Assembly (NCBI GenBank): GCA_000091205.1
Contig: AP006494.2
Length of the DNA stretch: 64,000 nucleotides
Source of the DNA: Cyanidioschyzon merolae
Taxonomy: Eukaryota
Direction: 5' to 3' (one strand)
Within the stretch, counting starts at the first letter, position 1; each line of letters starts with the position of its first letter. The position numbers and the translations under genes were made by a program. Below are positions 19,281 through 57,189 of this stretch, one piece after another. Under the pieces are notes generated by a model, which worked only from the letters and a program-made list of their open reading frames with translations, had not been told where the DNA came from and made no database searches.

Positions 19281-19316
<36 letters not shown>

Positions 19317-22300: not shown

Positions 22301-25300
22301 AGGTGTCGATGGCCGCTCGTGGTGCCAGCAGCGGAGCGGCTGCCTCGATCGGTAGTTCATCGACGACACCGGGCGCGTATGCCGACACCATCCCAAGAGA
22401 AGATGAAGTAGAAGATGGAGAATATCAAGACACGGACGTTGCGGGTTCCTCTCTCTTTCGCTTTATCCAGATACGTTGTGACGTCACAGATATGGTGCGT
22501 GTTCACGGAAGCAAACAAGAGGCTCCGGTCGTGCGACTCGAGGCTCGTGGCTTCACGCGAATGCAAATGAACCTTGCGCTAGCTCCTTCAATGCCGGCAC
22601 TTGTGCGCGTAGCCGGTTGTCTACAGGGCGCAGACCTTATTTATATGGGCAAAGATGCGAACCAGACACTTGTTCTGGGGCGTTTTCAGCCCAAGGCATC
22701 ATCCGATTCATCTTGGGATGATCGCTGGCAAGCACAGGAGCTGTGGCTGGCGAACGCGCCTCTCCCGTGCGATGATGATCCCGAGGACGCAGCGGGAACG
22801 CCACCACATCCAAATGCTCCGGAAGCTGCAGCTGCTGGGGCAAGTCGCGACTTGAAAATCCCGAATTCGCCAGCTGACCGGGACTCCACCGCTCTATGGA
22901 CTAGAGCGCGCAGTATGCCGGCTCGTGACGCCGAACCCGGTTCTGCAGCTGCTTTCGCGACGGCACCTTCGCCCTGCAGCGCGACAGATGCCGAGGCCGA
23001 ATCTGTGCATCGCCTGGAGCAGACTGACCTACACCAGGGCAATGCACCTGCAACGAGCACCGGCATGCTCACAATTGCCGCTGACTTGGAGCATCAGTTC
23101 ATGGAGACGGAGCACCTGGTACCTTCCTTGTCTTGGCGCTTTGTCCAGCAGACCGGTGCTCGGACGGCATTAGTCCATTTGGGTAAGTTGGACGGTGTCT
23201 ATCTCCACGGCTATTGGAAGCGACTCATCCCCGAAGTGGATGCTTTTCTGCAATCTTTTGTACCGGACGGGCCACCGAGCATGCCCTCGATCATTGAGGT
23301 TCGCCTCCATCGACCACTGTTGCGCTTTCCTGCAGGTCTTGCGTGCAGCGCTGACGAAGCGAATGCCCTTCATCTCCGCTGCGGTGGTACGTTGACCTTC
23401 CGCCGACGCACTTGTCCGAAAGAGACGCAAGGGAACCGAGCACCAGCTGCGACCGAGGCTACTTGTTCAGCTGGCGTCGTCGAGGTTGAGCAACCGCTTG
23501 TGCACTCGTCGTCGTCGTCGTCGTCGTCTATGTTGGTCGACACTGTACAACAGCCGCTAGCGCAGCAGGAGCCGAATCAACGCGGCGCTGACGCGGGCGC
23601 TTTGGTAGCATCCGACAATATCGACAACGACGACGACAACGACGATGACAGCGTTCCGTGGCACCTGGAGTCCTTCACGGACCTGGAACTGGTCACCGTG
23701 CACCTGGGCGGAGACCTGCACCAGATCGGATCGGTGGAGCACTGCCGGCTGTGGATCACGGAAGACGAGGACACGGGCTGTTCGCGCTTCGCACTCCAGT
23801 GCACAGGCGATGTGGAAACTTGTATCTGCGAAGCAGACTATGGCCCGTTTTGGTACATCGTCTGGAATAACCTGAACAGCGACGTTCCCTGTCAGGAATG
23901 GGGCATGCGGAATCCAGCAGGAGCGGGTTTTGTTCCATCAGGCACAGCCGAACGCGGTGAGCCCTCATTATCGTCGTCGCCTGCGTCGCAGCTACCGCAT
24001 TCCACAACATCGAATGGCAACGCATTTGAGAGCACCTGGACAAACGCCGCCGAGCTTCTCGATCCGTTGCTGTATCGTTTGGAGGTTTTCCTCCCTTGTT
24101 GGCAGGGATTCTGCAGTCACGGCGATAACCCGAGTGACGAATCGACGCGTCTGGTGTGGTTCCAGCTGAATGAGGTGCACCTCAGTGCCGATCTGTGGGG
24201 CTCTGGCGCCTATGCGACGTTTTTCTCCGCAACGTCGCTACGCATCGAAGACGCGCGATCTTTGATGAAGGCTGTTTCCCCGTTGTGGCCTTTGGTACGT
24301 GATGCACCCGGTTTGATCGAAGCATCCAGAACGAGCGACAAGCACCGCCAGAGCGCCAGGCAGAGTTCGCTATCCCCGGTACCCGACATGAGCGAGGAGG
24401 CGCGTGCGCGCTGTTCGCGACTGCTCCTGCGCTATCGACGCCAGGCACCAGACCAGAGGGGTGACCAGCTCACACATATCGCCATGGATCTACGATACCT
24501 CGAGATGCTACCGGTTGCGCAGGTATTGCGATCGCTTTCGTTCCTGGCGACACCCTTCGGGAAATTCGAAGCGATGAGCAGCCCAGTGCCGACACTTGCG
24601 TCTTGTCGTCGGCGAGTCGAACGAACCCAGGCCGTCGTCACCTGTTCGGACTGTAGCGTCGTGTTTCCGGCAACACTGGCGGCACTTACCAGTCAAGAAC
24701 AGGATGTCATGGAAGCACAAGGTGATGTGATGTTGACCTGCACCTGGCAAACGAATCCCTCGCAGTTTCATTACGAAATGTTTCTGGATCACTTTCGACT
24801 CTGCATGAAGCGATACGACCCGTGTCAAAGCCGAATTCCGCCACACGACAACCGCCTCGTCTCTGGTGTCCGCACGACATCGACTCCAGGCGCTTCAGAC
24901 TCGGAGACGAACGCGGACGGTTGCGTGCTGCAGGCTGCTACACTCACCAGTACCAGTGCCAACAGCAATACAAGTGCAGTGCCGGACGCTGTCGGTGCCG
25001 AAACTGGTACTGGTGTTGGTGGCGGAACGCTTGCGCCCTCAGTGGAGCTCGTCTACCCGTGCGCCATTCGGATGATGTACATCGATACGGGTGATCCGGA
25101 AATTCCACCCCAGTTCGACCTCTCGGCGGCGATGTTGCTGATGCGCTTCAGTCAACAGGATCTCGTGCTGATTGCCCAGATTGTGGAGGCATATCGCCAG
25201 CACCCGCACGAGGTTACCGACTGGGAACGCCTTCTCTGGCACGATGAAGCGGCCGGGGCTGCAGGGGCGCGCCCTCCGAGAACAGGGAGCGCTCACGCTG

Positions 25301-28300
25301 CTGTCGAGCCAGGGGCTATCGAGCATGCGACGCCACTTCAAACTCGACTCGCGTCTAGTATGTCGCATACGGAGGGCCGGGTATTGTCGGCACTAGCGCT
25401 GGAGTCGACACCAGGTCCTGCGGTTGGAAATGAGGCCGCATCGCAGCCGCTGACTGCGCTGAATGTTGCTGCTTCTGGCACTGGCCGGCATCCAGGGCGC
25501 AACGACGACGACGACGACGACGACGACGAACATGGATCGACACCTGGTACGAGCAGGCGATCCACAGAAGCAACCGAGAATCCCTCCAAGGTGCCAGCTT
25601 CGACGTTGCCAGAGGCGACGAATCTCGAAACGGCATCTGCATGGCATCGCTGGGTCAGTGGACGGACGCGTTCATTGCCTACCATATCCCCAGAGGTGAT
25701 CGAGGCCGCACTGCGTTCCGCCGAAGCACCCAGCGGCACGGATGCTGCTAGCACCTTGCAAGCGACTTGGCGACGTCGTGCTGGACGCATGCACCGACGA
25801 CTGGAGACGATAAGCGGCGCGATGCCTGCAGCAGCAGCAACAGCAACAACAACAACAACAACAACGACCACCACTGGTGCGACTTCAGCAATACACCCTG
25901 AATCGGCTACCAAGCATACAAGCAACACCACTGACAAGTCTTCGTCGACGACGAAGACAAAGACGCGGATCGAGGCCCGCTCGTCTGCCGAACGGCTTGG
26001 CGAGGCAGCGCAGGCGTCGAGCACGCCTCGTGCCGCTGCTGGTGCTACTTCATCATCAACATCAGCACCAGCAACCAGAGTGCGTTCGCTGCGGATTACC
26101 ATTCAGGTTGATACCCTGGTTTGTATGCTGCTACACGAGGACGCTTGGAGCCAGCCACCGAGTGCATCGATGAGGCCCGGGGGCCGCTCCTGGTATCAGG
26201 CAGTGATAGCGAATGAGGTCAACGCAAGCGAGTCGCCTATGGTCAGCTACCTACCCACGGTCGTGCTCTATGGCGCATTCTCGGTACAGAGTCGGGAGCC
26301 GGCAGTTAGCGATGCACAAGGCGCTCTCTGTATCGATATCTTCAATGACTATTTGGGAGCGTGGGAGCCTCTCGTGGAACACTGTGCTGGCTGTCTGCAA
26401 TGGAATGAGCAGGAGCTGCCGCTCACCGGGGAAGTGTCAGAGCTCGGCGCTGCAGTGCGCTCGACAGGTGCCAGCGCGGACACCGGCACTGCTGCACCAA
26501 GTGCCGGTCTGCGTCCTCGACATCGACTATGGCATCTGGTTGTCGCTGACGCCCTCGAGATGAATATCAGTGAGGCCTTTCTACCGGCGCTCGATAGACT
26601 GGCAAAGGCAGTGGAACAGATCGTACACGACTGGCGTGCATTGGCGACGCAACCGAAAGCAGGTCCCGAGACGCCAACCAGCACGGTGCACTCGCCATCG
26701 ATGGCACTGCTACCAGTATCCGAAGCAGCGCTGGTGACAAGGTGCGTATCCAGCGAGATGGATCATCAGGAAGCACCTGAAGACGTTGGAATAGCAGCAG
26801 CAGCAGCAACAACAACAACAACGTCAGCAGCAGCGCCAAGGAAAATCGATGTACAGGAAGCCGGTGAATACGCTGCAGCATCCGGAAGAAACAAAACATC
26901 ACGCGACAACGGCGATGCCCCTGACAGAACGGAAGCGGCTGCCGAATCCTCATCTCACAGCGTCTGGCTGCCGGAGACCAGGCAGCAGCCGAATGCCGGA
27001 CCTGGTGTGCGTCGTCACCCGCGTCCAACGTTGGCAGCCCTGGTGATTCACAACTGTACCGGTCTACCTTTGCTGATAGAATCGAAAGCGTTGCGAACAC
27101 GTAAGCTTGCACTGAGCTCTATGGCTGTCGAGGTGCGGCTCACCGATCTCTACACGGATACGAATCTCGAGTCGTCGGAGCACTTCCAGGCCTGGCGCTC
27201 GCATTTGACAAAAATGCTCGATACATTGCGCGCTTCCGCAGCAAAGAACGTTTTGTTTCCCGGCAGCGCCAGCTCTGACGAACTAGCAAAGAGCACCGCT
27301 TCGGGCGACGGAGCACGCGCAACACGAAAGCGTTCCCCCGACATGCGCGTGAACCGGAACGCCGCTCCCGAGCCGATGGGCACTGGCCTATTTCGACCGC
27401 TTGCTGCGGGTCTTGCGGATTGTGTACTGCGGATCGCTGGCTTTCATCCGGTTCGCGTGAACACTTGTCATTTCGGCACACAGACCTACACGCTGGAACC
27501 GGACACGAGTGCATCGGGCCTCGAGTTGACCGCTGCCTCCGCAGAGTGCTTGCGCTCATGTACCCTGATATGGGAACTTGGTGTCCTGAATGGAGCCATC
27601 ACGGGGGTGGCACGTTCCCTGCTTCGTTTCACGAACCAGCTTCAGGTCCCGCTACAGATTCGCTACGAAATGGCCACGCCAGCGGCAGCGCTTATCGATT
27701 GGTCGCGGAGCCTGCATCCGGGAGCAGTTGCGGATAGTCCACGGGTGGCGCTTTTGGCACCCGGCGAGTCGTGGTCACCACCGCTGCTGGCGCGCCTGGA
27801 TCGGCTGCAGGTGCGGCCCTGGTGTCGCCGGTGGTGCTTGCCGGTACCCGCGACGCAGTCGAGCGCTTCCCAGGGGGCAGCTGACGACCCCAGAATCGAG
27901 ACCAGTGGCCACCTGTCAGCTGATCAGTCGCTCGATACCTCCATCACAAGTTCCTTTGGTGACTCGGAAGCGACCTGGTCGGCACCGTTGCCAGACGTGA
28001 GCACGCTCCGGATGCTGGTTGCCGAGTCCTACCAGCGACGCAAGCGCATGCGTACCGTCGGTGCCGCTGCCTCAGCTTCGACCGCTGGAGGTGCGGCGGA
28101 AGTGCTCATGGCGCAGCAACGCTCGAGTTTGTTGACGTTACAGGGCGCGCGGCTCGGTTCACTGCCGTTTCATGTGGACTTGATTCCCCGTATCAGCTCG
28201 TATGCACGCTTCTCGCCAATGCAGCACGACTGGGTGGATTTGTGCTTTCGAGCGCCGCTGGTGCTTGCCAATCTGTTGCCAATAGCGGTCGTGATTCGGC

Positions 28301-30628
28301 TGCATCGTGCTGGAAGCAGTACACCACTGTGGACGAGCGGGATACTCGCGGCCGGTCAGTCCGCTGCCGTCCATATAACCCGTAGTCTGAACGGACTATT
28401 TTTCTCGGTAGCTCTGGTGCATCTCATCAACACGAATAGTGCCTTGGCATCTGATTTGGCCGTACAGCGGAATGCGCCCATTTCCCGAGAATGCGACGAC
28501 GCTCCGGACGAGACAGCGGACTCACGCTATTCCACGGACTCGGAGCGAGTCGACGCTGAATGCATCTGGTCGGAGCCTATACGTTTGCCACCGAAATGGC
28601 CCTGCGAGGGCTCTTTTCTCTGCCCGCGCGTGTTCGACTGGACCATGCTAACGTTCGAGGGTACCTGGGAGACACCAGCTCTGGATCCGCATGCGGTTAC
28701 GGTGCCGGTGGCGAGCCAGCGCCTCCAGCTCTCCGCGAGCTGCTGGTTACAAAATCGCTCTGACTGTGCGCTCTGCATTGATCCGGGGTTTGTCGGGGAT
28801 CGTCTGCCCACTAGAGGTCTCACTCAGCGGCGAAAAGCAAGCGCCCTGCGTCAGCACGCCCGGGAGCGCAGTTCTGGCGCCGACTCGATCATGTCCGCCA
28901 AGGCGAGCATCGACAGCGAATCCACAGCGGCAGCGTGCGCCCCGGACGAGCGCTTCATCCTCCTCAATGCCTGGATCGAAGGCCAGGTGCCGGAGCCGTA
29001 TCTTCCGCTCGCTGTGCAGAGCTTTCGTCTTGCCGTCATTGAGCAGCAGCTGGGAACTTGGTCAGATCCGATCTTCGTTCGAGACCTGGATCAGGTACAG
29101 GTGCTGAACCTGCCGGAACGAGTTCTCGTCCTGAGTAGCCGCCCGGTGAGTGATCCTTTTGGGAACAGCCTTGTTCTGAGCATTCATAATGTGGCGCGGA
29201 TTGTGAATCGCACGCCACTTCCCTTTGAATACGTCCAGACGCTGCAGCATTTGCACGTAGAGACGCTTCTGGAAGGTCGCCCGTCCGCCACCGTTGGCCA
29301 GGTACACTCGCTAGATCCTGGTGCAAGTGCCGCACTACACTGGGAACTGGCGGATATGGAGCGGCATGGCGTATTACGCATCCGACCCGCTGGCGATGCG
29401 CTGCCTGCAGTGGCGAAGGCTGGCACGCGAGTCAGCGCTGGTGACGCAGCTGGCGGCCTGCTCCAGCGGACAAGCGCGCGCGTGAAGGCGCACACGCCGA
29501 GCGCATCTGCCGCTGCCGACGCAGCAACCTGTTCACAGCAGCAGCAGCAGCAGCAGCGTCGACGTCGCCATTCTCCAGCAGCAGCGCGCGTCCCTGAGGA
29601 TGCCGACTCGCCAGCAGCGGCATCTGGACGAGCACCCTCGCCGTGGCTATGGAGCTGCGGGATTCCCATCGGCATGACAGGGCATTACGCACTGAAACTG
29701 TACCGTCCCGATACGCTGCACCAGTACATCGCGAAGCTGAGTTTGCAACCCAGTCCTGACGGTGTTTGGATGGTGATTTTGGATCCCGAGGATCCCGAGC
29801 ACCCGCCGATGCGTCTCCAGAATATCTGCACCCGCTACGCTGTTGCATACCGTCAACTGGACGCGAGTCGGCGCTTTTGGCTGCTGCGTCCTGGTTACGC
29901 AGCACGCTACGCCTGGGATAATCCCTTCACGTTTCCCAAGTCCCGTCGACTATTACTGGAAGTCGAAGAGACGCGATTCGCCTTGGCTCTAGATGGACTC
30001 GGGGAATGCGTCGCTGTCCTACCCCTTGGGCCGCACTGTCCGTCGTTGCAGGTTGCCATATCCTTGGATGGTCCGACCAAGGTCATTACACTGTACGATG
30101 ATCGCGAGATTTTTCATCTCTTTCGTCAAGGTATCGTAGCGGATGCACTTTTGGTAGCACGCGCAGCGGCCCAAGCGACTGGACGTGCACAAGCGGCAAC
30201 AGCGCCGGTACCGGTCGCGCTGTCGCACCGCCGCCCTTGGCTGATGCGGCAACAGAGGCGCAGCTCTTTGCGTTGGTTTCGCCGCTACGGCTTTGTGCGA
30301 CCCAGTTGGCCCGAAGAGAATGAGGTTGACTCAGATGCCTTCCAGCACTTGGATTTCTTCTTTGAGCTTGAGCGGATCGGGGTGTCGTTTCTGACCATGG
30401 AACCGGCCGAATTAGCGTATTTGACCTGTCATCGCTTACGTGGCGGCTATACTACGGATTACAAAGGATGTGCGCTGGAAGTCGGCATCGAACGCATCGA
30501 ATTGGATGATCAGCGCAGCAGCTGTGTACATCCCAAGGTTTTGCGTGTGCAGCCACAGCGCCTGAGACCCTCACATGCCGCTGAATCGACAACCAGCGCG
30601 AAGGACGATAGCGCAGCGGCATCAACGA

Positions 30629-30674
<46 letters not shown>

Positions 30675-31241
30675 GACAAGAACTGCAGTGCCTAGGGAAC
30701 CAGCAGACGCGCGTCCATCGCTCTCGCGTGGCCGCGTGTCTGCTGCAGAGGAAGCTCTCTACCCAGCGCTCTATCTATCCTTCGAGCTTGGAGCGCCCTA
30801 CAGCGGCGACGTATGGAATGTTCGCTTCGGTTATGTGGCGCTTCAGACCATCGAATTATGCCTCGAGGAGGGTTTCATTCGTGCAGCCTGGCCCTTTCTC
30901 CAGTTGCTTGTCGCCAATGACGTCGACGAGCCCGAGCACGCTGTCACTAGAGACATCTCGACGGTGCCGCCAGCGTCCGCATCCGAGCCCGGCCGTCAGA
31001 TCTATTTCGAATACCTGTTGGTGAACCCGCTGACGCTGCGTGTGAGCTTCTTCATCAGCCCTATCGCATCGCAATCTGCTGAACAAGACGTCCCTCCATA
31101 TGCACGCTCCGTGCCGAGTGTGCAGTTGACGCCCTTGAACGAAATCCATGGATCACGCTTCCGCGCCGGTAACGCAACGACAGGCGCTGGGCTGGAATTC
31201 GATACCCCTGACGCAAACTCTCCAAGCACGAGAGACGCAAC

Positions 31242-31292
<51 letters not shown>

Positions 31293-34200
31293 CGCACAAC
31301 CGGCCCCGTCACATCCGGCGAGCGATGGTGCATTGGTACTGGCACCTGAGCGAAGCTCCGTAGAGACGGCTCCTGCTGGAAACCGACAGGCGTCGCCAGA
31401 GCGTTCCAGACAGCACAGTCGTGCACTCGACCGAGGACGGGACGCCAGTGACACGTTTTCGGCATCTGCCTCGGCAGCGGTGCAGCACTCGCTGAGTCGT
31501 CGAATTGGCTCTGGAACAGGTGCGCTCGCTGGGGGCCATGTCTTGCACACAGGCTCGGAGCAGAGCGTTCGCCTGGGTGGCGGCGGAAATCGTAGCGTTC
31601 GCGGGTACCGCACCATTCTACGTCCATTACTTGCAGCACTGGGAACCGTCGAAGATGCATCGCTCAGTGCGCGTGCGCTCCTCCTGGAACATTATCTGGA
31701 TTCGGTGGGTCACTGGCTAGAGTTCATCCAGGAATTCTATCTGCTGCAGTTCAGGGCGTCGCAATTGCAACTGCTAGCATCCAGTGATCTGCTGGGCAAT
31801 CCGACGCGTTTGCTTGATTCGGTAGCAGAGGGAGTTAGCGAGATCTTCGAGACACCGCGCCAAGCAACCTCCAGTTACGACCTGTTGCTGCGCCTCAGTC
31901 GCGCGAACATGGGCCTCTTCACCAACTCGGTGCGGGGTCTCTTTCGGACTGTGTCGGCGGTCTCTGCGTCGTTGTCACGCGGCCTCACTGCCATGACCGG
32001 TGACTCGCAATATATTCAGAAACGCGAGGAACGCCGACGGGATGCGCCGAGTTCTGTAGCCGGTGGTCTGCGCAAAGGACTCGTCTCTTTCGGCTATGAA
32101 ATGCGAACCGCGGTAACCGGGCTGGTACGCGAGCCGTACCGTGGCGCACAGGCGGGCTCGGTTTCGCGAGGCATTCGCCGCGCTCTCGTGCAGGCAGTAA
32201 TCCGCCCTGCGAATGGTTTCCTGGACCTCATCATGCATCCAGCAGCGAGCCTTGGTGCTCGTCCACATTACCAGCGTCTGCCGGCCGGGAGACGGGTCCG
32301 GCCGCCGCGCTGCTTTGGACCTGGCCTTCGACTTGTGCCCTACTGCTTCGAGGATGCACAAGGCAACGATCTATTGTGGCGTCTGTTGGTGCGCAAAGCG
32401 ACCTCATCGGCGAGCGACCCGTACCCGAACCTCGAGTTCTACGTGGGTATGGTCCGCGTAAGCGCGTCAGCGATCTACGAAGCAGCACCTCCGCAGAGCT
32501 CGACTGCAGCAGCCACTCGCGCCTTTGCACTGGAGCGGCTCCCATTGGGGCCGCGTTACGGTGTGGTGCTCGTATCCACCGAGTCCATTTACGGTCTCGT
32601 GGTTCATTCCGAGCGTCCGAGCAAATTTCAGTCCATCTGGCAGGTTCCCTGGTCGGAAGTGGTGCAGGTTGTCGAGAGCCTGCCCGCGAGTCCCGCCGTG
32701 GTCAAGGTACTTCATTCAGCAGCACCATCATACCATCGTTTTTGGCAGCGCATTCGCAATCGTTATGCGATGGAGCGGGTTCAGCGGCTCAGCGAAGAGC
32801 TCGAAAAACGCCAGGAACGCGTCAAAGCTACAAAAGCTGCCGCGACGCCAGCCACTCCACGGACAGCGGCTCTGGCGCGCAGTCAGCGCAGTGCAGCGGT
32901 GCAGCAACTGCGCATCGAGTGCGCGTCCATTGCTCAGCGGGATGAATTGCTTCAGATGTTGCGGCAAGTGTTCTGTACGGTTGCCCGTGGCCGACTGTTG
33001 ACGAGTCAGGCGTCAATGGCGCCACCGTCGCCCGGTTGCACGTTCCGTCTGGACGCTGCCGGAAAGCGCGAAACCGAATCGCGTCCTTCTACGGACGCTC
33101 TATCGATAGCAACCGTAGCTGATCAGCATGAACGGAGCACGCTCTACTCCAGCGGATCGGCAAAGCCTCGTGCCGCGAATACGAATGTATCCAATTTTAA
33201 GAGCGGGCTGCCGCCGGTGGCCAGTACATCGGCACCGCCACTGGTGCGCTCAGGCCGGGTAGAGTCAGAGCCAGATGCACCGGAACCGGGCTCGATTTCT
33301 GCCGGCATTGCCGACGTTATGAGCTCGGAAAACGCCCACGGACTGTCCGCGAGCAGTGGCAGGTCGGATGGTGAGAGCCTCAGTCCAGTGGTGCGCGTGT
33401 CAGCGTGCGCTACTGCTTCCGTTGCGGGGCCAGAGCGGGGCGTTGCAGCCGAATGCTCCGCACAGCCGCCAATTGAGACACCAACCTGGTACGCGCTGGA
33501 CAGCTCCCAGCCGCCGCTTCCATTAGCGGAATCGACTGGCGGGACGGGGGTCGCTTCTGGTGTTGTTGGAGTCCCCGTCGCGAACACAATGGGATGCGTG
33601 ATTGAGAACCGGTCCGACACAACCTTTGTTCTGGTTTGGCAGTATCTTGATGGAGGATTCTTCCTGCAGGAAGCGCCGCCAACGATCTATGCGCAATCAC
33701 GAGCGAAATTTGTGATCTACCGCGCGGCACAACCGCCCAAAAGACGGTCACCGTTGCGGCGGCAGCGGCAACGTCAGCTGGAGCAACATCTGCCAGCAAC
33801 GTCGTTCGAGTCCGCTGCCATTGCCACTGGAGCGTTCGCAGCGCCCGGTGCAGTGCGCGGTTCCAGCGACGTAGCGCCGGACATGCCTCGAAGCTCAGAT
33901 ACGGCGCTCGTTCCTGAGCAGCATTTGCGTGCTCGTCAGGTGCAGCGGCAGCGGCGTCGCGACCAGCTGGGCCTGCGAAAGCTCTCTGGCATTATCCTGT
34001 ACGCATTGGCAGATCCCGATGACCAGCAAGCGATCTACGATGAGCGTCGCTGGATAACGCTCGAGTTTGGCGTTTCGCGTCGTGCGGTGCCGCGCGCGCA
34101 TGTGCGCTGTCCACCGCCCATGGTCTCGACGCTGCTATTCCAGCGAGCGGCGAGTGCGCTGCAAATGCTGTGCGTGCTTGAGGCAATGGAGACGCCAACG

Positions 34201-35013
34201 AAAACGGATCGCTCGACAGCGTCATTGCCGACGTCAGGGGCGCTGAGCTCATCAGCTGCTGACGCCGCAGGACGTGCTTCAACGAGCTCGGAACGGAGTC
34301 TCCGTTGGCGAAAACGCAGCCCTGCGGCTCGGAGAGAGAGGCTGCAAAATGCCCGAATAGTTGCATCGGAGGCGGCGGTTCAGAGCCATCACGACGCTGC
34401 TTCAGTCTTGTCGTCGACTTCGTCTGATTCCGACGACATTGATGTGGAGAGGAGTGTCCTCGAGAGCTATGAACCCAGCACGATTATGGGGCCGCCCGAG
34501 TCGCACAGCATGGCCACTCGAGTGGCCGCGTCTGACGACCCGGTGTTGCCCGCGCCTGCAAGTCGCGAGCCCGAGGCGTCAAGGCCGCGTTCGCGCAGCC
34601 ACTCGCGCCCCGGAGAGCGCCTCCGATCATGGCTGAGACGGCGCGGCGCTGCTGGAGCCTCAGCCACTGTCCCTAGCCGGTTGGATAAGCTCGCAAATAC
34701 CCAATCGGCTCGTGAGGGGACTGCGACCGCCGGCCTTTCGCTGACGGCGTCACAGGCGTTGACCACAGCAGCATCCCCGGACTGCACGGCACTGAATTAC
34801 GAAAAGGGTGTCGGCGAGCGTGAGCCAGACCTCCAGCGACAGTGTGACCGCGCACTACAAGCGACAGCAGCTGTAGAAGAAACAGAAGCAGATGAAGCAA
34901 ACGCGCGGGCTCCGGAGGGTTGCACCATCCGCGTTGCTGCCGAGGTTCACAGTGACTCTGAGGACGGCTATTTAGACGCACCACTGGCACTCGAAGATGC
35001 CGACCCCATGTAA
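16951..35013 (+). CDS. VPS13: VPS13-family bridge-like lipid-transfer protein, 6021 aa, single exon
   Basis: The N-terminus is a clear Chorein-N domain (MLAHFVAELLSGTLGQYVKIDERQISVGIWSGQLELHELQLVPEAV...VEVPWKTLSWSQPLRIQIEDVCVQLAALPP). The ORF is continuous. The track start at 16948 is TTG; ATG at 16951. It is interrupted by many in-frame low-complexity runs (polyA, polyQ, polyT, polyD, polyS). Confidence 0.85.
31243..31290 (+). repeat. (CAG)16 encoding polyQ inside VPS13; representative of several in-frame trinucleotide microsatellites
   Basis: Others in the same CDS: (GCC)n 19281-19316 (polyA), (TCG)n 20477-20497 and 23506-23528 (polyS), (CAG)n 22117-22143, 29534-29557 and 30632-30673, (GAC)n 25504-25529 (polyD), (GCA/ACA)n 25831-25870 and 26790-26823. 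All preserve the reading frame. Confidence 0.9.
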
Positions 35014-35143: not shown

Positions 35144-35345
35144 ACACGCATGCAATGATGCTGTGCTGTCCCGAATGCATGCAGCTACACGCATGCAATG
35201 ATGCTGTGCTGTCCCGAATGCATGCAGCTACACGCATGTGATGATGCTGTGCTGTCCCGAATGCATGCAGCAACACGCATGTGATGATGCTGTGCTGTCC
35301 CGAATGCATGCAGCAACACGCATGCAATGATGCTGTGCTGTCTCT
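35144..35345. repeat. 43-bp minisatellite, ~4.7 copies, unit acacgcatgcaatgatgctgtgctgtcccgaatgcatgcagct
   Basis: Perfect or near-perfect tandem copies start at 35144, 35187, 35230, 35273 and 35316. Units contain the palindromes gcatgc and atgcat. It lies between the convergent VPS13 stop (35013) and the GT31 stop (35824). Confidence 0.9.
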
Positions 35346-35823: not shown

Positions 35824-36858
35824 TCACACAAAATCGCCTCCAGAGTCCACTCGAGCGCAATTCGCATGCATACCGAAACTTTTGTGAATACGCACCATAT
35901 CCGCTGCGCGGTTCAATTTGTGAAACGAGATCATAGAGTCGCGCTGTTGTGGTGGAGCTGTCTCCGGCGGGCCGTACCAAAAACCCGCCACATTCAGTAT
36001 TTCCGCGTCAGGGCAAGCCCGCACACACGCAGCCAAGTCCTTGTCCTCACCATTATACAGACGACATGACTGGAATCGGGATACGAGCGTGGCTACGAGC
36101 GCCCGGCTGAGCACGTAACCAGCACCGCCCATGGCATACTCAAGGATGCTCGGTGCAGCGCGGCGATCTTGCGAGGCATTCGCCGCTTCAGCGTGGACAG
36201 GATCGAGCGCTCCCCAGAACGTTCGTACACTTCCCAAATAGAGCGGCCGCGCTGGATCCAAGTGCTGAAGCAGTGGAAAGATCCGATGAGGCCGCAAGTA
36301 CGCATCATCGTCGATTTTCAAGAAGAACTGTATAGTCGACGGCAGTTCCTTCCAGGCATAGCCGAGCACCTGTCGCGTGCGATTCGACTCGGGTCGAAAG
36401 ACACCCTCACGTGGTCGACCCCGTTCGAATCCAAGCCGAAGACAGCTGGGTTTCGGCACCGAAAACCATTGGTAGTCCACACTGGCTGGGAGCGGCGTCG
36501 CCCATGCTGGCCACGGTGCGTCGCTAGCGATGAGAACGTTCGCTCCAAAGCGAAGCGCGTCCGCCGCCCACGTGCGAAGTTGACTTTCAACGAGCGCGAC
36601 GTGGCGCTTAGGATCATCGCAATAGTGACGATTGTCTGAAGTACAGGTCACGATGCAGATTGCCAAGTTTGCAAAAGCGTAAGGCTCCAGTAAGACCGAC
36701 GGCCTGTGATGACAAAGCGCGTCCCAGTGCTCGGCTTTGGGCCAGGGCCAAAGTAACCTACCGCACAGACCAGCACATGCGACAGCCAGAAGCAGCAGCA
36801 GACCACGAAAGCGTCGCGTACGTGAGCTATGCTTGCCTAGACGCGGCTTTTGAGGCAT
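35824..36858 (-). CDS. GT31-family (Fringe / beta-1,3-glycosyltransferase-like) type II membrane glycosyltransferase
   Basis: Signal anchor RFRGLLLLLAVACAGL. DDDAY motif and GGAGYVLSR motif are typical of Fringe/GT31. The track start at 36900 is GTG; the first ATG (MPQKPRL) is 36858. Confidence 0.65.
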   Translation of the reverse strand: MPQKPRLGKHSSRTRRFRGLLLLLAVACAGLCGRLLWPWPKAEHWDALCHHRPSVLLEPYAFANLAICIVTCTSDNRHYCDDPKRHVALVESQLRTWAADALRFGANVLIASDAPWPAWATPLPASVDYQWFSVPKPSCLRLGFERGRPREGVFRPESNRTRQVLGYAWKELPSTIQFFLKIDDDAYLRPHRIFPLLQHLDPARPLYLGSVRTFWGALDPVHAEAANASQDRRAAPSILEYAMGGAGYVLSRALVATLVSRFQSCRLYNGEDKDLAACVRACPDAEILNVAGFWYGPPETAPPQQRDSMISFHKLNRAADMVRIHKSFGMHANCARVDSGGDFV

Positions 36859-37654
36859 CCGAGCGCCACGCTGAGGCGAAGCGGTGCAGACGCGAAGCAC
36901 GACCCTGCCCCTAGGCGCACCGTGGAGCGGATCGCGGGGCGCCGCCGCTACGATGCGCCAGTTTCGCGTGCACCTGTTCTGCGCTCCTCATTAAGAGGTT
37001 TCGAAACATCCAGCGGATTGTCTGTGTTTCCAGGTCCACGAGAAGCCACCTGTGATAGACAACGCTGCCCGGTAGACGAGCAAACGACGGCATCCGTGAG
37101 GATGATAGCGCAACGTATCTACTCCGTCTGGATACTGCAACCTTACTCGGCTGAAGAATTCACTCGCGGTGCCATGCAACTATCGTCGCCTGGAGCAGAG
37201 CAGCTATCTGAAAAATCGTCCTCGCTTTCAGATCCTGATACCCAGCATCGACTGACCAGTGCTACTCGTTTAGCAGCATCGAATATCAATGAGTTGACCT
37301 CGGGGGTGTCGAGCTCACGGCGGGTATCCATCGCAGCGCCAGGCATGCCACCGCATGCCCCATCTGCTGGCAGGACATCTTTCCGCTGTTTTGAGACAGT
37401 TCCCCAGTGTTTTCAGGCCCAGACGGAAAAACTGGTGCGTAACAGAGACGCCTGTGGTGGCTATTATCGTCGCTTTTGCTCTTGGTGCGGTGATCAAAGA
37501 CCTGCTTTTGCACCATCGAGCGCAAGCAGTCTTCGAGAATCCCAGAGTATGGCGCGCGGGGCACATGTATTGCTTTGTTTTGGTGCTCCCGAACCATCAG
37601 AGTATCGTGGTATGAGTGACTTGAGTGTCGAACGCAGTGCTCCTTGCACTGTTC

Positions 37655-37760
37655 AGTAAAGCATATATATCCTACAGGCAGTTCGTCTTCGATCTAGATG
37701 GTATATTGCATCGTGATGGCGATCTCCTGCTATACACTGCAAAGAAGCATTCAATTCCAC
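37655..37760 (-). repeat. Copy B of the conserved Fanzor-unit 3' element (solo)
   Basis: tatatatcctacaggcagttcgtcttcgatctagatggtatattgcatcgtgatggcgatctcctgctatacactgc is ~77% identical to copy A. It directly follows the stop of the degenerate tail ORF 37751-37945. Confidence 0.6.
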
Positions 37761-37945
37761 AAAGCAGAGAGTGAAACGAAATGGAGTTGAAAGGCTTCAA
37801 TCTGAGGCTGTTGCGAGAACGATTTCGTCCAGAAGCCCGCAGATGTGCGGTCGCGAGCGCGTCTGATCATCGTGTGATTTTCGCGGGCTCGGTTCACGAG
37901 GGCTTCGCAGCGTCCAACCCATACGTAATCGGTTTCGCTTGTCAT
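37751..37945 (-). pseudogene. Solo Fanzor/TnpB-like tail remnant with degenerate RuvC-III (VNRARENHTMIRR, catalytic D lost) and QP-tail (KSFSQQPQIEAFQL)
   Basis: Aligns with FVNRDVNAAINFSRYAV...YKFLLQPLRLDV (6848-7360) and LNRDLNAAINIRRCAM...ANFIGQPLKVEL (54752-55000). Confidence 0.4.
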
Positions 37946-37981
37946 CTTATTTTATACTTGCATTCAGAAAGGTACGAAACC

Positions 37982-38935
37982 ATGTTTGTAGCACTCTCTG
38001 CGAGTATTTTTTCTGCTCGAACAAGAGAAAATTGTCGTTCGTTTGCTACGCATCAATATCGCTACCGTCTTCGCCGTTTCTCTACCAGCCATTCGTCACT
38101 TGGAGTCGTCTGTGCGCGACTGGCGACTGACTGGGAGCGTGCGTTGCCACCGCGTCGTCTTGTTGGCGACTGGGAGCTTAAGCGGGAGCTGGGGCGCCCA
38201 GATATGGACTTACGTGTACTGGTCGGTCTGCGTCAAGAGTCGCGAAACGAATCGATTTTCGGTGTGCTCATTGGCGTCGTTACTCTCGCTGCATTTGCCC
38301 CGGCTCTGGCACAAGCCAGTTCCGTGCAGGGCGCCCAACAGCTCCAGAACGTCGCCGCTGTGGTTTCTCTAGGCGGTATGGGTGCCTGGGCATTCGACAC
38401 GCTCGCGCTCCAAGGGCGAGTTGCCGCCTGGCTGCAGAAGCGCTGGCTCACTGACCCAAAACGAATCGCCGTGCACGAGGCTGGACACGTGCTATTGTCA
38501 CACGTTCTCGGATACGAGTTAGAAAACTATTCACTGGGGCAAGACCGCACGAATCTGCTGGCTGGAAAGACGGGTGTTGTACTTACCGAAGGCCTACGAG
38601 CGCCGACGTCAGGCCCGGTGTCAGCGAGTGAGTCGTTTGCGCTTCTGTCAGTAGCAGGCATTGCTGCTGAGGCAATTTTCTTCGGGGATGCCGAGGGTGG
38701 CATGGAAGATCTGGCCACCTTGTCTCGATATTTTCGTCGTACAGAGCCCTTTTTGAACGCAGATACGCAAGCGTCTGTGCGATGGGCCATGTTGGCCGCA
38801 CTTCGTATCTGTAACATGCATCGCGCGGAGTTAGAGCAGATCGCCGAGGCGCTACTCCTGGGCAAATCAGTGAAGGAATGTGCAGAAATAATTTTTAGGG
38901 AATGCCCGAAGCCACTCGCGGAGCTTGCGCAGTAG
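37982..38935 (+). CDS. Peptidase M41 (FtsH protease-domain-like) membrane protein lacking an AAA ATPase module; probable organellar presequence
   Basis: HEXXH zinc motif in IAVHEAGHVLLSHVL and an FtsH-like C-terminal protease block (LSVAGIAAEAIFFGDAEGGMEDLATLSRYF), with one TM (IFGVLIGVVTLAAFAPALAQ). There is no Walker A/B. The ATG at 37982 gives an MFVALSASIFSARTR...RRFSTS transit-peptide-like N-terminus. An alternative ATG at 37781 would overlap the antisense Fanzor remnant. Confidence 0.6.
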   Translation: MFVALSASIFSARTRENCRSFATHQYRYRLRRFSTSHSSLGVVCARLATDWERALPPRRLVGDWELKRELGRPDMDLRVLVGLRQESRNESIFGVLIGVVTLAAFAPALAQASSVQGAQQLQNVAAVVSLGGMGAWAFDTLALQGRVAAWLQKRWLTDPKRIAVHEAGHVLLSHVLGYELENYSLGQDRTNLLAGKTGVVLTEGLRAPTSGPVSASESFALLSVAGIAAEAIFFGDAEGGMEDLATLSRYFRRTEPFLNADTQASVRWAMLAALRICNMHRAELEQIAEALLLGKSVKECAEIIFRECPKPLAELAQ

Positions 38936-40344: not shown

Positions 40345-41424
40345 TCACATCACGATGCGAGGTTCCAAAATATGTTCCGTAACGGATTTGTGAGGAAGGA
40401 TAACACCTCCGTTCACACAAACCTCATCCTTCACAGCGACGTCTTCCCCCAGGACACTCGTGTTCTCTATCCTGACCCAGGAACCAATCGTTGATCCCCA
40501 ACCAATAATAGAATTCGCTATCCAGGTGTGTGACTTGACCCGCGAACCCGGTAAGAGAGTGCTCGACTTGATGCGAACGCCCTCCTCGATGATGCAGCCA
40601 GCGCCGATCACTACATCCGGTCCGATACGACAATCCTTTCCTATTTGCGCTGTGGTATCTACCAGCACATTTCCGATGAACATGGGGCCCGCGGCAAGCT
40701 CCGGTGAGCCTCGCAAACGAAGTGACTGCAGATGCAACGACATGCCTCGGAGATAGTCTTTCGGCTGACCGATATCGGCCCAGTAGCCGGATAGCTCGTG
40801 CGCGTACAGAGCGCCATCCGCTGCCAAAGCCGGAAATACCTCCCGTTCAATGCTCATTGGCCGCAGCTCTATATATTCGAGAACAGATGGCGATAGGAGG
40901 TAAACGCCGGCATTTGCCATATTGCCGACCCATTCCGTCGGTTTTTCCCGAAACGCTTTAACCTGCATCGTTTCTGCGTCGTACAGTACGATGCCGAACT
41001 TACTGGGCTCGTCTACTTTGGTCAACAAAATAGTGGCTTTTCCACCGTGTCTTTGATGTGCAGCAATCATCGCGGCAAGCGGGTAGTCACACGTTACGTC
41101 AGAGTTGAACACAAAGAACGGCTCGCTATCGCCGAGCAGCGGTTGTGCGAGCTTGAGTGGACCAGCGGTGCCCATAGGCTCCGTTTCCCGCGATACAGTT
41201 ATTTTTATGCCAAGCTTCTTTTGTTCTCTTTGTAGAAAATCGTCCATCACGTGTGGCTGGTAGCTCACTGCGAGTATAACTTCCGTTACGGAGACCTTGG
41301 CAAGTGCCTCAATTTGGTGCATCACCATCGCTTTATTACAGAACTCTACGAGCGGCTTGGGATGCGAAAGCGTTAGCGGGCGCAGCCTTGTGCCATAACC
41401 CCCTACCAGTATGAGTGCTTTCAT
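40345..41424 (-). CDS. Mannose-1-phosphate guanylyltransferase (GDP-mannose pyrophosphorylase)
   Basis: MKALILVGGYGTRLRPLT...PKPLVEF nucleotidyltransferase N-terminus plus a C-terminal left-handed beta-helix (hexapeptide repeats). 359 aa. ATG confirmed at 41422-41424. Confidence 0.9.
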   Translation of the reverse strand: MKALILVGGYGTRLRPLTLSHPKPLVEFCNKAMVMHQIEALAKVSVTEVILAVSYQPHVMDDFLQREQKKLGIKITVSRETEPMGTAGPLKLAQPLLGDSEPFFVFNSDVTCDYPLAAMIAAHQRHGGKATILLTKVDEPSKFGIVLYDAETMQVKAFREKPTEWVGNMANAGVYLLSPSVLEYIELRPMSIEREVFPALAADGALYAHELSGYWADIGQPKDYLRGMSLHLQSLRLRGSPELAAGPMFIGNVLVDTTAQIGKDCRIGPDVVIGAGCIIEEGVRIKSSTLLPGSRVKSHTWIANSIIGWGSTIGSWVRIENTSVLGEDVAVKDEVCVNGGVILPHKSVTEHILEPRIVM

Positions 41425-53800: not shown

Positions 53801-54692
53801 CCTGGCGACTGGCAAGGTCTGACGCATCGTGCCTTTCTGCAGCTTCTGCTGCAAGCAGCTCTTCGAACGATGCGTCTTGATCGTCGATTTCCTTCTGAGT
53901 AGCTTTTTTGGCCTTCCGTTTCTGTTTCTTGCTCGATTTCGTCTTTGTGGATTCCTCCTCAACTGCTTCGAGCTCCGCGAGAATGGCCTCAATTTCGGCA
54001 TCTTCCTCGTGCGACACCCCCGTATTCCCTTTCTTAGCGGAGGAGGAACGTTTGGTTGTCGTGTTGCGGAGAGCATCTGTGGGTGTCCAGGTACTGGGCA
54101 CCGCACCGGCCCGCGCATAATTCTTCTCTTTCGAAGTTGTCCCTGAAATCTCTGTTCCCGAACTAGTGCCGATCGCGTTACGAAAATCTTGCGGAACCGC
54201 AAGTGCCCCCGAGGCAGGGCTTCGTGAACCGTTCAACGAGGTATTATCACCGGTCCTACCACTTCGCCTGTGACTCGACCGGGTCGAATCGCTGCTCTGG
54301 GCGTCATCAGCGTCGGAGTTACCCTCGTCCGAGAGGCCAAGTGCTGAGAAAGCTGCAAATATGGAATTTCCTGGAGCGCTTTCGCCTATCCCAAGGTCTT
54401 CGTCGACGTCGGCGGGTCTCGGAAGCTCCCGCGAGACCCCGCGTCGACCGCGTTCCGGACGGTGAACTGTCTCCGTCTTAAGGTCTGACAAGCTTTCCTT
54501 ATTTCGTTTCCCCCTAGAGGCGTCAAGAGAAAGAGTAGTGACTCCCTCGTTCCCTAAAGATTGTCGGTGATCAGTTACGTTAAAAGTGGAGTCCTCTCCG
54601 TCTAGTGCTGGTAAAGCGGGCGCTCCAGACTTCTTCTTCTTCGCCTTTTTACCGCCCTTGACGGCCACAGGCATCTCTATATCCGGTTCCAT
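50895..54692 (-). CDS. EIF5B: Translation initiation factor eIF5B (IF2 homologue)
   Basis: K/E-rich N-terminal region, then a GTPase domain (IICILGHVDTGKTKLLDKIRHT, DTPGHESF, NKVDR) and the C-terminal beta-barrel domains. 1265 aa. ATG confirmed at 54690-54692. Confidence 0.9.
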   Translation of the reverse strand: MEPDIEMPVAVKGGKKAKKKKSGAPALPALDGEDSTFNVTDHRQSLGNEGVTTLSLDASRGKRNKESLSDLKTETVHRPERGRRGVSRELPRPADVDEDLGIGESAPGNSIFAAFSALGLSDEGNSDADDAQSSDSTRSSHRRSGRTGDNTSLNGSRSPASGALAVPQDFRNAIGTSSGTEISGTTSKEKNYARAGAVPSTWTPTDALRNTTTKRSSSAKKGNTGVSHEEDAEIEAILAELEAVEEESTKTKSSKKQKRKAKKATQKEIDDQDASFEELLAAEAAERHDASDLASRQADEAQHGEQVVSAGGDAPRVQERPAAQESPGASPVSDPKNRHTSQAGTVVDQTQSLSDQSAAEERIAEAQIEDRNHVGEAQSQQLTAAQKKRLKKKQKEASKKAEAVAESSELPSSAPSNASKAIVRRILAEQQRRAEEEERRRQEEEDRLARERERQQREEEEARQREEERRQKKEAERARREQLRREGKLLSKSERQRKQRVEAFIQLSMASGAIAAATLPQEATKRSKRVYDDRKKKPRPKDPTGTDSEQTTSTGVKAAAQVAATASDSTKTVAAASDARVAAVPDSFEAHLTDAFSDSGSGEDEHVLSLASESGVDDDAEQKEAISGKVRFSEPARVQPSGPALSAEERRQLAVRQRLADEAAARTAASADRLRSPIICILGHVDTGKTKLLDKIRHTHVQEGEAGGITQQIGATYFPIEAVRQEAAKVNPELTYRIPSLLIIDTPGHESFTNLRSRGSSLCDIAILVVDIMHGLEQQTLESIELLKMRKTPFIVALNKVDRLYGWKPCPMAPIRQALEENPSTAAEFERRVRETKTAFAEIGFNAELYWENTDYRRNLSLVPTSAISGEGIPDLLMLLVQLPQRLLVERLKFIDFVYCTVLEVKVIDGLGTTIDVVLTGGALHEADTIVVCGLDGPIVTTIRALLTPHPMKELRVKGQYIHHKRIEAAQGVKISAEGLEKAVAGTQMFVARNPDEIEYLKEEVMADLSTTLAAVDTSGVGVYVQASTLGSLEALLEFLRKDAKIPVSGVNIGPVHKRDVVRASTMLEHRPEYAVILAFDVKVEREAREEAENLGVQIFTADIIYHLFDHFRKYMEQVKERKKRDAEVDIVFPVCATILPDSIFNKRDPLILGVRIDEGILRCGSSLVAVHEETSRMVDIGRVLSIESNKKSVTQARRGDLVAIKVSSRQTSHVMYGRQFDHTFKLYSRITRKAIDLLKELYRDELTKDDWQLVLKLKKMFGVL

Positions 54693-54750
54693 GACAGTAT
54701 CTACGTGCGCTTTACGTACACTGCACCGCCGCGGACACCATCAACGCCGT
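54665..54750 (-). repeat. Copy C of the conserved Fanzor-unit 3' element; overlaps the eIF5B start codon and 5' region
   Basis: ctctatatccggttccatgacagtatctacgtgcgctttacgtacactgcaccgccgcggacaccatcaa shares the blocks tatatcc, ggt.cat, gtat.tgc and tacactgc with copies A and B. It lies directly 3' of the RuvC-III ORF (stop at 54752). Confidence 0.5.
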
Positions 54751-55724
54751 TCTAGGTCGAGCGACGCCAACCGTGCACAGTAGTGGCGAGAAAGCCGTCC
54801 CAGACGGGGCGTCGCCAACCGACGTGCAGACGCCCCCCAGTATTTTTGGACCGGCCACCTACGGCTGCTTCCAACTTCTTCTCATATAGTTCCACTTTGA
54901 GAGGTTGTCCAATAAAGTTCGCTCTTGGCAAGTACGGAGGTCTGTTCTCCAGCATCGCACATCTCCTTATATTGATAGCGGCGTTTAAGTCACGGTTCAC
55001 AACTCCATCCGTTTCTTGCCATCATTAGTTGTGCTAATCAATGCGAGTAGTCCACGAACTTTCGCCCTCCTTTCCATTTGCTCCTCCGTCAGCGGTCCGT
55101 ACTTTTTTATATCCTCAGGGCTCCTCTGGCACTTTTCCATCTCCACTCCCTGAAGTGTACGACCCAGCTCATGGTGTGTATAGGACGTTCGGAACTCATC
55201 TACAGGTATCGTAACGAAACGCCGTGCACACTCTTTGTACGTTCTTGTCGTTGGAGCTGGCGTTGTTCCTTTTTGGGTCTTCCAGCGCCCTGCTCCATAA
55301 GCCACTACGAGCCTCTGATTTTCATCCTCCTTGAGGGCACTCAACTGATTGAAAAAATTCGCGAACGCGCGCTGCCTCCCACCGTGTAGATTCATTCGCA
55401 GACGAGCCCACCGGGGCTTTGTATACTCCTCCCACAGAGCATCCCAATGCGCAACACGAACTTCCATGAATTTCCGAAAAACTTCAAAGTCCGCTCCGCG
55501 GCTCGTCACCTCGCTCATAGCTTCCAGGTGATCCTTCATTCCTGAATTCCAAGTCTCGATTTTCTTCCTCGCATTCATTATACCAGATTCTCGATAGCAT
55601 CTCGCTCTCGAGAACCTCAAAAGACGCATGTCTTTCTGACGTACGTTACCATCAGTACCATCTTCCGCAAGCTTGGGTATTGCGATGGTGATGATATTCG
55701 TGTTCCCAGGGTCCGCGCCAACGA

Positions 55725-56013
55725 CAAAGTCGTCATCGTGCACTTTCTGCATCGCAGGATCCGCCTCCTTCTTTTCTTCGTGCTTCACCGCGCCAACGAC
55801 AAGGTCGTCATCCTCCACCTCCTGAATCGCAGGTTCGGCCTCATTCTCATCTTCATGGTTCGCCGCGCCAACGACAAGGTCGTTATCCTCCACCTCCTGC
55901 GTCGCAGGACCCGCCTCCTTCTCATCTTCATCCTTCGTCACGTCAACGACAAAGTCGTTATCCTCCACCTCCTGCGTCGCAAGATCCGCCTCCTTCTCAT
56001 CTTCATGGTTCGC
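55725..56013 (-). repeat. 78-bp tandem repeat (~3.7 copies) inside the Fanzor-like ORF, encoding acidic 26-aa repeats ([26 protein letters not shown])
   Basis: Each repeat ends in DD[FL]VVG[AD], i.e. a reiteration of the segment immediately N-terminal to the RuvC-I motif. It shows on the + strand as ORF 55738-56259 with repeated KVVILHLL. Confidence 0.8.
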
Positions 56014-56149
56014 CGAGGGCGGAACTGGCCGATCTTTCTTCAACCGCCGATAGTGTACACACAAGGCTACTCCATCGATTTCGATCATCCCAGTGAACAA
56101 CTTTTGCTTGTTCACTCTCAGACGTTTGAAATTGGAGACGTTCTTCAAG

Positions 56150-56260: not shown

Positions 56261-56345
56261 TTGATGTTGCACATTGGAACCACGTCGAAGCGCTTCCCCA
56301 TTAGGAAAGCCTTCCGTCTCTCCCACTCTTCATTTTTTTTCTCAC

Positions 56346-57148: not shown

Positions 57149-57189
57149 TATTTTTTTCTGGCAGCCGGCGAACCTGGGCCTCCAGGATC

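Follow-up and report, generated by a model that had tools for sequence, protein, structure and literature searches.

A dispersed repeat lies head-to-head with a gene for a HEAGH metalloprotease-like protein in a 64,000-nt stretch of Cyanidioschyzon merolae contig AP006494.2 (hereafter the window). What is this repeat, does it serve the neighboring gene, and at which ATG does that gene begin? A preliminary description of the DNA took the repeat for the 3’ element of a Fanzor nuclease gene, lying beside a degenerate tail of the nuclease and perhaps co-opted as a promoter. We arrive at a different answer. Segment 37390-37815, here named copy B, is most likely an inert DNA-transposon relic, the front end of a composite element; the protease-like gene would start at 37982 and its 384-aa reference model would be over-extended. 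The result serves above all as a correction: a false Fanzor remnant is struck out, and the repeat is re-assigned to a family combining transposase and Fanzor sequences.

Repeat copy B and its parent family

The repeat noted at 37655-37760 in the preliminary description is real, but its coordinates have to be widened and its assignment to a 3’ element does not hold, since its counterpart in the parent element is the 5’ portion. By blastn, the sequence overlapping this interval matches window 8071-8259 in the same orientation (69% identity, E=2e-16). At least four paralogous copies of the family were found in C. merolae-type genomes: A and B in the window, C on metagenome contigs L019/L021/L011 and D on contig L028 (Table 1). 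The metagenome pattern scan needed two exact motifs, which diverged copies such as D escaped, so that the copy number is a lower bound. Positions 24-434 of a profile built from copies A and C align by nhmmer to 37818->37389 (E=2.9e-57). In the four-copy alignment, B is mostly 55-81% identical to A, C and D down to ~37390 and 32-49% identical thereafter, while A, C and D stay alike beyond this point and run on into the DDE region. The 5’ boundary is common to all four copies and the abrupt end near 37390 is unique to B. Every reading frame of B contains stop codons. The membership and the extent of the repeat are established by these comparisons of sequences.

Copy A (window 6825-8274) is colinear with L019 4088-5529 (68.5% identity over 1473 nt, E=5e-142). 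Copies A and C are therefore parts of one larger repeated unit. Its order on the sense strand is a leader of ~85 nt, a module of ~250-350 nt, a DDE_3 transposase remnant, a Fanzor start region and a Fanzor tail. The DDE_3 remnant is recognized by Pfam PF13358 at L019:4640-5089(-) with 32.4 bits for a cutoff of 28.6 (E=1e-7); the match is weaker in the window copies (E=0.069). The parent element thus carries the domain by which membership in the Tc1/mariner/IS630 superfamily was judged. In copies A, C and D the module runs directly into this remnant.

The Fanzor parts were compared with CMe-1A, the Fanzor1 element of C. merolae, described with ~150 copies, a 3169-bp consensus, neither terminal inverted repeats (TIRs) nor target-site duplications (TSDs), and an unknown superfamily (Bao & Jurka 2013, PMC3627910; consensus from Additional file 2). 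A whole-element nhmmer profile was built from five CMe-1A copies. Copy C matches its positions 268-468 (~consensus 909-1100, the Fanzor start region; E=4e-11) and 2233-2479 (~consensus 2840-3085, the Fanzor tail; E=3e-34), and copy A its positions 268-353 and 2238-2487. The tail of copy A, at 6829-7076(-), reads VNRDVNAAINF and is matched at E=8.3e-23 by a hidden Markov model (HMM) of the tail. In the composite repeat, the DDE_3 remnant occupies precisely the place between leader (CMe-1A consensus ~870) and Fanzor start (~909). The Fanzor part is internally deleted in the composite copies and all copies found are decayed.

How does B relate to this unit? Its first ~85 nt resemble the 5’ untranslated leader of CMe-1A (consensus ~785-870). 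The Smith-Waterman score of the B leader against consensus 700-1000 is 25, compared with 15.6 ± 2.3 for shuffled sequences (2/500 reach the observed value), and the leader junction in copy C matches the CMe-1A profile at E=1e-4. Beyond the leader, B differs from canonical CMe-1A in having a module that the latter is missing. Judging from translated comparisons, this module probably once encoded the N-terminal (helix-turn-helix) part of the parent DDE_3 transposase and has since decayed; Pfam finds no helix-turn-helix domain in the module. B stops before the DDE region. It has neither the DDE_3 catalytic-domain remnant nor a Fanzor tail, and it lacks the CMe-1A coding sequence and 3’ end. As aligned here, B is a fragment of the composite family, not a full member.

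We propose the following scheme. The parent would be a composite in which a leader common with CMe-1A precedes a degenerate Tc1/mariner/IS630-type transposase gene, itself followed by the Fanzor start region and then, after internal deletion, by the RuvC-III tail. B would have kept the leader and, of the decayed transposase gene, a length equal to about its first 118 codons, all downstream parts, including those derived from Fanzor, being gone. It lies between the divergent Fringe-like and HEAGH genes, its 5’ end towards the latter, and the ATG at 37781 would be a chance in-frame codon inside the relic.

Two-gene elements combining a Mariner/Tc1 transposase with Fanzor1 are known, namely PUl-1 and PGv-1 (Bao & Jurka 2013, PMC3627910). 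Copies A, C and D likewise carry the DDE_3 remnant upstream of, and co-oriented with, Fanzor sequence, and the gene order of PUl-1 is that of the parent composite. In contrast to PUl-1 and PGv-1, the composite copies are decayed and internally deleted in their Fanzor part, no TA duplications or TIRs were identified in them, and B is a front end only. A tblastn comparison of the PUl-1 transposase with the composite transposase gave no significant match. By inspection, the 5’ boundaries of the four copies show no clear TA or TIR, and the ends of B no convincing TIR or TA duplication. The 3’ ends of the composite are CMe-1A-like, and no TIRs were found at those of CMe-1A (Bao & Jurka 2013, PMC3627910). 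The composite copies point to a two-gene element, with DDE transposase and Fanzor1, as the ancestor of CMe-1A. Their architecture may classify CMe-1A, which Bao & Jurka left unclassified.

An earlier reading of the repeat, which rested on a length excess of ~244 nt, was dropped. It was ruled out by the colinearity with L019 (1.47 kb) and by the extension of B to 430 nt.

Copy A itself is part of a pile-up of decayed elements at window 6.3-10.3 kb, to which another DDE_3-like remnant, at 9408-9827(-), also belongs. A fragment of the middle part of Fanzor (LLNFSRARYQ..., ...AFARFF) follows the tail (6848-7078) on its downstream side, at 6334-6769(-).

Table 1. Coordinates of the features (window positions unless a contig is named)
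Feature	Position	Strand	Remark
Repeat copy B, 3’-truncated degenerate fragment (~425 nt) of the composite transposon family	37390-37815	- (sense)	head-to-head with the M41-like gene
Leader of copy B, putative homolog of the CMe-1A 5’ untranslated leader (consensus ~785-870)	37730-37815	-	multiple alignments and Smith-Waterman
Module of copy B, predicted decayed transposase N-terminal coding part	37390-37745	-	translated comparisons
HEAGH metalloprotease-like gene, 317 aa, transit-peptide-like N-terminus starting MFV	37982-38935	+	M41-like, below Pfam threshold
Upstream in-frame ATG of reference model BAM80750.1 (384 aa)	37781-37783	+	inside copy B; predicted not to be the functional start
64-aa open reading frame across the copy B edge and unique intergenic DNA	37751-37945	-	not homologous to Fanzor tails by protein or DNA searches
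Exact 12-nt identity TCGTGAACCGAG to the CMe-1A consensus FVNRD codons	37888-37899	-	single exact match in the window
Composite copy A: leader, module, DDE_3 remnant, CMe-1A start region, Fanzor RuvC-III tail	6825-8307	-	fuller paralog of B in the window
Composite copy C	L019 4088-5567	-	metagenome pattern scan
Composite copy D	L028 4527-5990	+	reached via transposase remnant; A+C profile E=1e-264
Fringe-like glycosyltransferase gene	35824-36858	-	Pfam Fringe E=1.2e-11; syntenic ortholog in L005
GDP-mannose pyrophosphorylase gene	40345-41424	-	identical to BAM80751.1 (C. merolae 10D)
Near-full-length, frameshifted CMe-1A Fanzor element upstream of eIF5B (ATG 54692)	54741-57470	-	consensus 671-3145, 82-90% identity
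CMe-1A 3’-end/host-gene intervals, co-oriented	window 54692-54765; L006 7135-7264; L007 1705-1767; L007 7410-7577; L029 3118-3386; L030 1737-1758; L031 2708-3014; L032 1542-1646		
CMe-1A convergent case	L009 6472-7306		

The divergent gene pair and the start codon

The repeat is antisense to the protease-like gene, as the preliminary description had stated: the sense strand of B is minus and the gene is on the plus strand. The two divergent genes are separated by a 1.1-kb intergenic region in a compact, intron-poor genome, exemplified by a 6021-aa VPS13-like open reading frame (ORF) at 16948-35013. Any insert here is therefore “in the promoter” by default, and upstream of two genes.

The same locus is available from hot-spring metagenome contigs L001-L004, L018, L020 and L026 with 97.5-99.7% identity. 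The strain comparison covers eight strain sequences, among which L004 has diverged most (97.5% identity along 7 kb of alignment). L005, a syntenic locus of a related species, preserves the gene order; its version of the target gene is 67% identical at the amino-acid level. Copy B is found in all 8 strain contigs and is absent from the syntenic intergenic region of L005. It has 18.6 variable sites/kb, adjacent intergenic DNA 16.4/kb. We infer that B has no regulatory role. The proposed co-option as a promoter or regulator is left without positive evidence, B being lineage-specific and not less polymorphic than the neighboring intergenic DNA. Nor does the locus repeat the association seen at eIF5B. 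There, a CMe-1A 3’ end precedes a co-oriented gene; here, a 5’ fragment of the composite faces away from the gene.

Among the alternatives, the one that survives best is that the relic now acts in cis, its leader working as a minus-strand promoter towards the Fringe-like gene, or B as a bidirectional promoter or spacer for the divergent pair. Its fixation in the strains would fit such a role. The sense strand of B is co-oriented with the Fringe-like gene, and the B leader is a putative homolog of the sequence that immediately precedes the Fanzor ATG. Moreover, at eight of nine other loci a CMe-1A 3’ end is found 21-289 nt upstream of a co-oriented host ATG, which suggests that promoter function can be supplied or tolerated by these elements. 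Nevertheless, we consider a cis-regulatory role improbable. Polymorphism is not reduced in B, and the orthologous genes are intact in the related species that lacks it. In addition, the ATG of the Fringe-like gene (36858) is ~530 nt beyond the truncated end of B, the DNA in between being unrelated. At the other loci it is the 3’ end of the element that adjoins genes, a part that B has lost.

We then come to the start codon. Both ATGs named in the preliminary description, at 37781 and 37982, are in frame and open the HEAGH ORF ending at 38935, and the first one does overlap the remnant, since it is inside copy B. The longer, 384-aa ORF (37781-38935(+)) is identical to BAM80750.1/XP_005536786.1, annotated as “hypothetical protein, conserved” in C. 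merolae 10D. The preliminary description favored the ATG at 37982. Orthologs, natural ATG->ATT variants and the pattern of polymorphism agree with this choice.

N-terminal conservation in orthologs, which had been suggested as a check, supports the downstream start. In orthologs P0002 (MFLVSF...) and P0145/L005 (...MFVPALNS...), the start coincides with ATG 37982 (MFVALSAS...), and the distance from the start to the first conserved Trp is 51 residues in the gene and in both orthologs. The upstream ATG is not conserved in any ortholog. An exhaustive HMMER search retrieved 425 homologs of the protease-like protein. Among the 150 listed, the best-matching stretch begins nearly always at about residue 44-60 or later (numbering of the 317-aa form), at the earliest at residue 26, and none reaches the extreme N-terminus. 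Population data point the same way. The G37783T variant converts the upstream ATG to ATT in strains L020 and L026. Region 37781-37981 has 10 variable sites (49.8/kb), distributed 2/4/4 over codon positions, and the coding sequence 37982-38935 has 16 (16.8/kb), distributed 6/1/9. The upstream region thus shows three times the polymorphism of the coding sequence, without third-position or codon bias, and three amino-acid changes occur within five of its codons between close strains.

On this comparative and population evidence, translation from ATG 37982 to give a 317-aa product is well supported. The conserved start, the ATT variants and the polymorphism indicate that the 384-aa model BAM80750.1 is over-extended by 67 codons into the relic. 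Such an early start would mislead protein-targeting predictions. The N-terminus beginning MFV... is rich in Ser, Arg and Thr and looks like an organellar targeting peptide. An early Phe (MF motif) is linked to red-algal plastid import.

Could the 384-aa model nevertheless be correct in strain 10D, with transposon-derived sequence exonized as an N-terminal extension, for instance for alternative targeting? No stop codon interrupts the frame between 37781 and 37982, and this is the model given in the reference annotation and in UniProt. However, the loss of the start codon in two strains, the excess of unbiased polymorphism, the clustered changes and the absence of the extension from orthologs and homologs all argue against it. 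With the extension, moreover, the conserved MF motif of the predicted targeting peptide would no longer be N-terminal. We regard an exonized extension as very unlikely.

The gene had been described as a peptidase M41 (HEAGH) gene, and UniProt names the 384-aa protein “Peptidase M41 domain-containing”. The motif stands: HEAGH, an instance of the HEXXH zinc motif, is invariant in the ortholog alignments. The Pfam M41 threshold, however, is not reached (PF01434, 11.7 bits for a cutoff of 29.9). Six of ten more distant homologs scanned score 16.6-24 bits, and the other four have no match. Orthologs match TIGR01241 positions 419-503 at E=0.003-0.016. Neither Pfam nor NCBIfam detects an AAA+ ATPase module in the protein, whose 317 aa are conserved from about residue 50 onward only, and a PDB sequence search with it gives no match. 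The gene product therefore shares with FtsH and peptidase family M41 the HEAGH zinc-binding motif and sub-threshold Pfam M41 and TIGR01241 matches. It differs from them in having no AAA+ module, no scanned member reaching the Pfam gathering score and no solved structure found by sequence. From these matches, “FtsH-protease-domain-like” is a defensible label.

The candidate Fanzor tail and guide RNA

The preliminary description further recognized a degenerate RuvC-III tail of Fanzor in ORF 37751-37945(-). The ORF exists and encodes 64 aa, but its identity as a tail is not borne out. The tail HMM, built from 63 CMe-1A-family members, was run against 2079 six-frame fragments; it recovers one further real tail besides that of copy A, at E=1.9e-30, and gives the 37951-37754 fragment E=87 (0.1 bit). 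A protein search for Fanzor relatives found 282 of them. BLASTP of the ORF against the real tail at 6848-7360 has no match at E<=100, and tblastx is also negative. In a protein Smith-Waterman test of the ORF, 714/2000 shuffles reach the observed score. At the DNA level, the CMe-1A whole-element profile has no nhmmer match at E<=10 in 37400-38100 in a window-wide search, and still none when the search is limited to 37700-38000 (300 nt). Likewise, blastn against the CMe-1A consensus gives no match in 37390-37990 at E<=0.01.

The sole resemblance to a Fanzor tail, and the sole basis for that reading, is the 12-mer TCGTGAACCGAG, identical to the FVNRD codons of the consensus. Allowing at most one mismatch, this 12-mer has 2 matches in the window for a shuffle mean of 0.44, and 9/100 shuffles reach 2. 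In local alignment, 9/500 shuffles attain the score obtained with the last 470 nt of the consensus (its 3’ end), and 71/500 that obtained with the whole consensus. The flanks of the 12-mer, counted from the sequences, are ~29% identical to the consensus, which is the random level. This pattern is that of a chance island rather than of a decayed homolog. The real tails at 54866-55000 and 6878-7012 contain the catalytic RD motif in its context, (F/L)VNRD(F/V)NAA(I/L)N(I/M). The ORF reads LVNRARENHTMIRR, with the Asp replaced and NAA.N absent. Fanzor homology is absent from the ORF by all these searches, and we read it as a chance ORF, not a RuvC-III tail.

The guide RNA (omega RNA) region of Fanzor and TnpB reportedly lies at the 3’ end of the gene that encodes the nuclease. 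A conserved non-coding piece beside a nuclease tail is what the preliminary description implicitly invoked for the repeat. B differs from an omega RNA in being the 5’ part of its parent, in being absent 3’ of real Fanzor ORFs and in having no conserved fold. In copies A, C and D, both the DDE_3 remnant and the Fanzor pieces follow the module on its 3’ side. Among the full CMe-1A copies checked, the repeat was absent 3’ of the Fanzor ORF in the eIF5B copy of the window, in L006, in the two L007 copies and in L009. The repeat is missing, too, from the Fanzor-bearing loci L006, L007/L008 and L009/L010. The reading of B as a Fanzor 3’ element or omega RNA region was rejected on its 5’ position in the parent, its absence 3’ of real Fanzor ORFs and the lack of a conserved fold.

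Taken as a whole, the model of a solo RuvC-III tail followed by a 3’, guide-RNA-like region and co-opted as promoter or regulator of the M41-like gene is hardly credible. It can appeal to the exact identity at the FVNRD codons, to the real repeat adjoining the 12-mer and to the Fanzor tail that fuller copies of the repeat carry elsewhere in their sequence. Against it stand the tail HMM, BLASTP, nhmmer and protein shuffle results, the place of the repeat on the 5’ side of its parent, upstream of the DDE_3 remnant, its absence behind the Fanzor ORF in the full copies checked, and the lack of a conserved RNA fold or an Rfam match.

Still less probable is that B and its paralogs encode a structured non-coding RNA: RNAalifold on copies A and B alone gives helices with 7-8 apparently compensatory pairs, but copies C and D break these helices, the long-range one included, leaving few compensated pairs (3 and 6 of ~35), weak consensus energies of -14.6 and -16.3 kcal/mol over 338 columns and positive covariation terms (+1.69 and +0.19). 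The structured-RNA candidate was rejected on this loss of covariation. A search of the whole window against Rfam returns no family at gathering thresholds, and E-value mode yields no meaningful match in 37300-38050. No tRNA or short interspersed element signal was found.

Some observations weigh against reading B as an inert composite relic beside a gene that starts at 37982. The polymorphism counts are small, with 8 sites in B. Its presence in all eight strain contigs, including L004, is compatible with a retained function, without being evidence for one. Support for the homology of the B and CMe-1A leaders is moderate. From the sequence, transcription could start upstream of 37781 in strain 10D. 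Finally, the match at the FVNRD codons would, taken by itself, be improbable (9/500 shuffles against the consensus 3’ end) and is only ~75 nt from a Fanzor-associated relic, and a vestige of a second, almost erased element near 37888-37899 keeps a slight chance.

Placement of CMe-1A copies near host genes

The Fanzor copies in the window and on contigs L006-L010 and L029-L032 are CMe-1A, with 82-90% identity to the consensus. Of the nine copies examined, eight have a co-oriented gene as the first one past their 3’ end (one-sided binomial p = 0.02 for orientation). The distances from the 3’ end to the co-oriented ATG are ~21, 38, 49, 82, 129, 143, 250 and 289 nt, that of ~49 nt being found at eIF5B. 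Besides eIF5B, the neighbors are a POT1-like gene, an unnamed ORF and the genes for a leucine-rich-repeat protein, a PI3/PI4-kinase, a VHL-domain protein, RPS4e and RPL34e. The ninth copy, on L009, is convergent with SURF6. Only 21-49 nt are left in three cases, in which the host gene would thus be transcribed from within or through the element.

The preliminary description had also raised an insertion preference for promoters. At the level of the CMe-1A family this idea gains some support from the eight loci, but B does not share the arrangement towards the M41-like gene. If the geometry of CMe-1A applies, B would relate to the Fringe-like gene on its other side. Tf1 in fission yeast is said to be a case of promoter-proximal transposon insertion in a compact genome. 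CMe-1A copies are likewise found just upstream of host genes, with the differences that their orientation bias is strong and their 3’ ends are very close to the ATG.

A broader scenario can be offered tentatively, and we think it less probable than not by a clear measure. CMe-1A 3’ ends would sit, or survive, just upstream of co-oriented host starts, either acting as a mobile 5’ leader or promoter or targeting transcription start regions. B would be an eroded front end upstream of the Fringe-like gene, the composites would represent the ancestral two-gene form and CMe-1A a Tc1/mariner-type derivative. The placement of the 3’ ends offers a starting point for testing how, in a very compact genome, the sites of a eukaryotic Fanzor element are chosen or how it survives at them.

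Further features of CMe-1A were observed. Directly after its 3’ terminus (...GAAC(A/G)GCG; window 54741-54750, L007, L030), several copies read TTGATGG or TTGTTGG, which could be either part of the element or a target-site motif. The Fanzor ORF contains, at window 55788-55942(-), a 75-nt (25-aa, acidic) tandem repeat whose copy number varies between copies. At L006 3979-4622 and L007 1767-7410, CMe-1A copies, or their 5’ 618-nt parts, are head-to-head, with ~24 nt between consensus position 1 of one and position 660 of the other. The first 635 nt of CMe-1A (TE-N2_CMe), at its 5’ end, may be a separate, invertible unit. A 100-nt piece at window 16531-16630(+), ~320 nt upstream of the VPS13-like ORF, is 77% identical to CMe-1A consensus 7-104, which belongs to the part shared with TE-N2_CMe.

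Two other repeats were noted in the window. A dispersed family unrelated to CMe-1A is present at 11159-12077, 58791-59280 and 2199-2503, and at L019 3094-3993 (tblastx, blastn). Just 3’ of the VPS13-like gene, a short tandem repeat at 35144-35342 gives blastn self-matches offset by 43 and 86 nt, and its copy number differs between strains.

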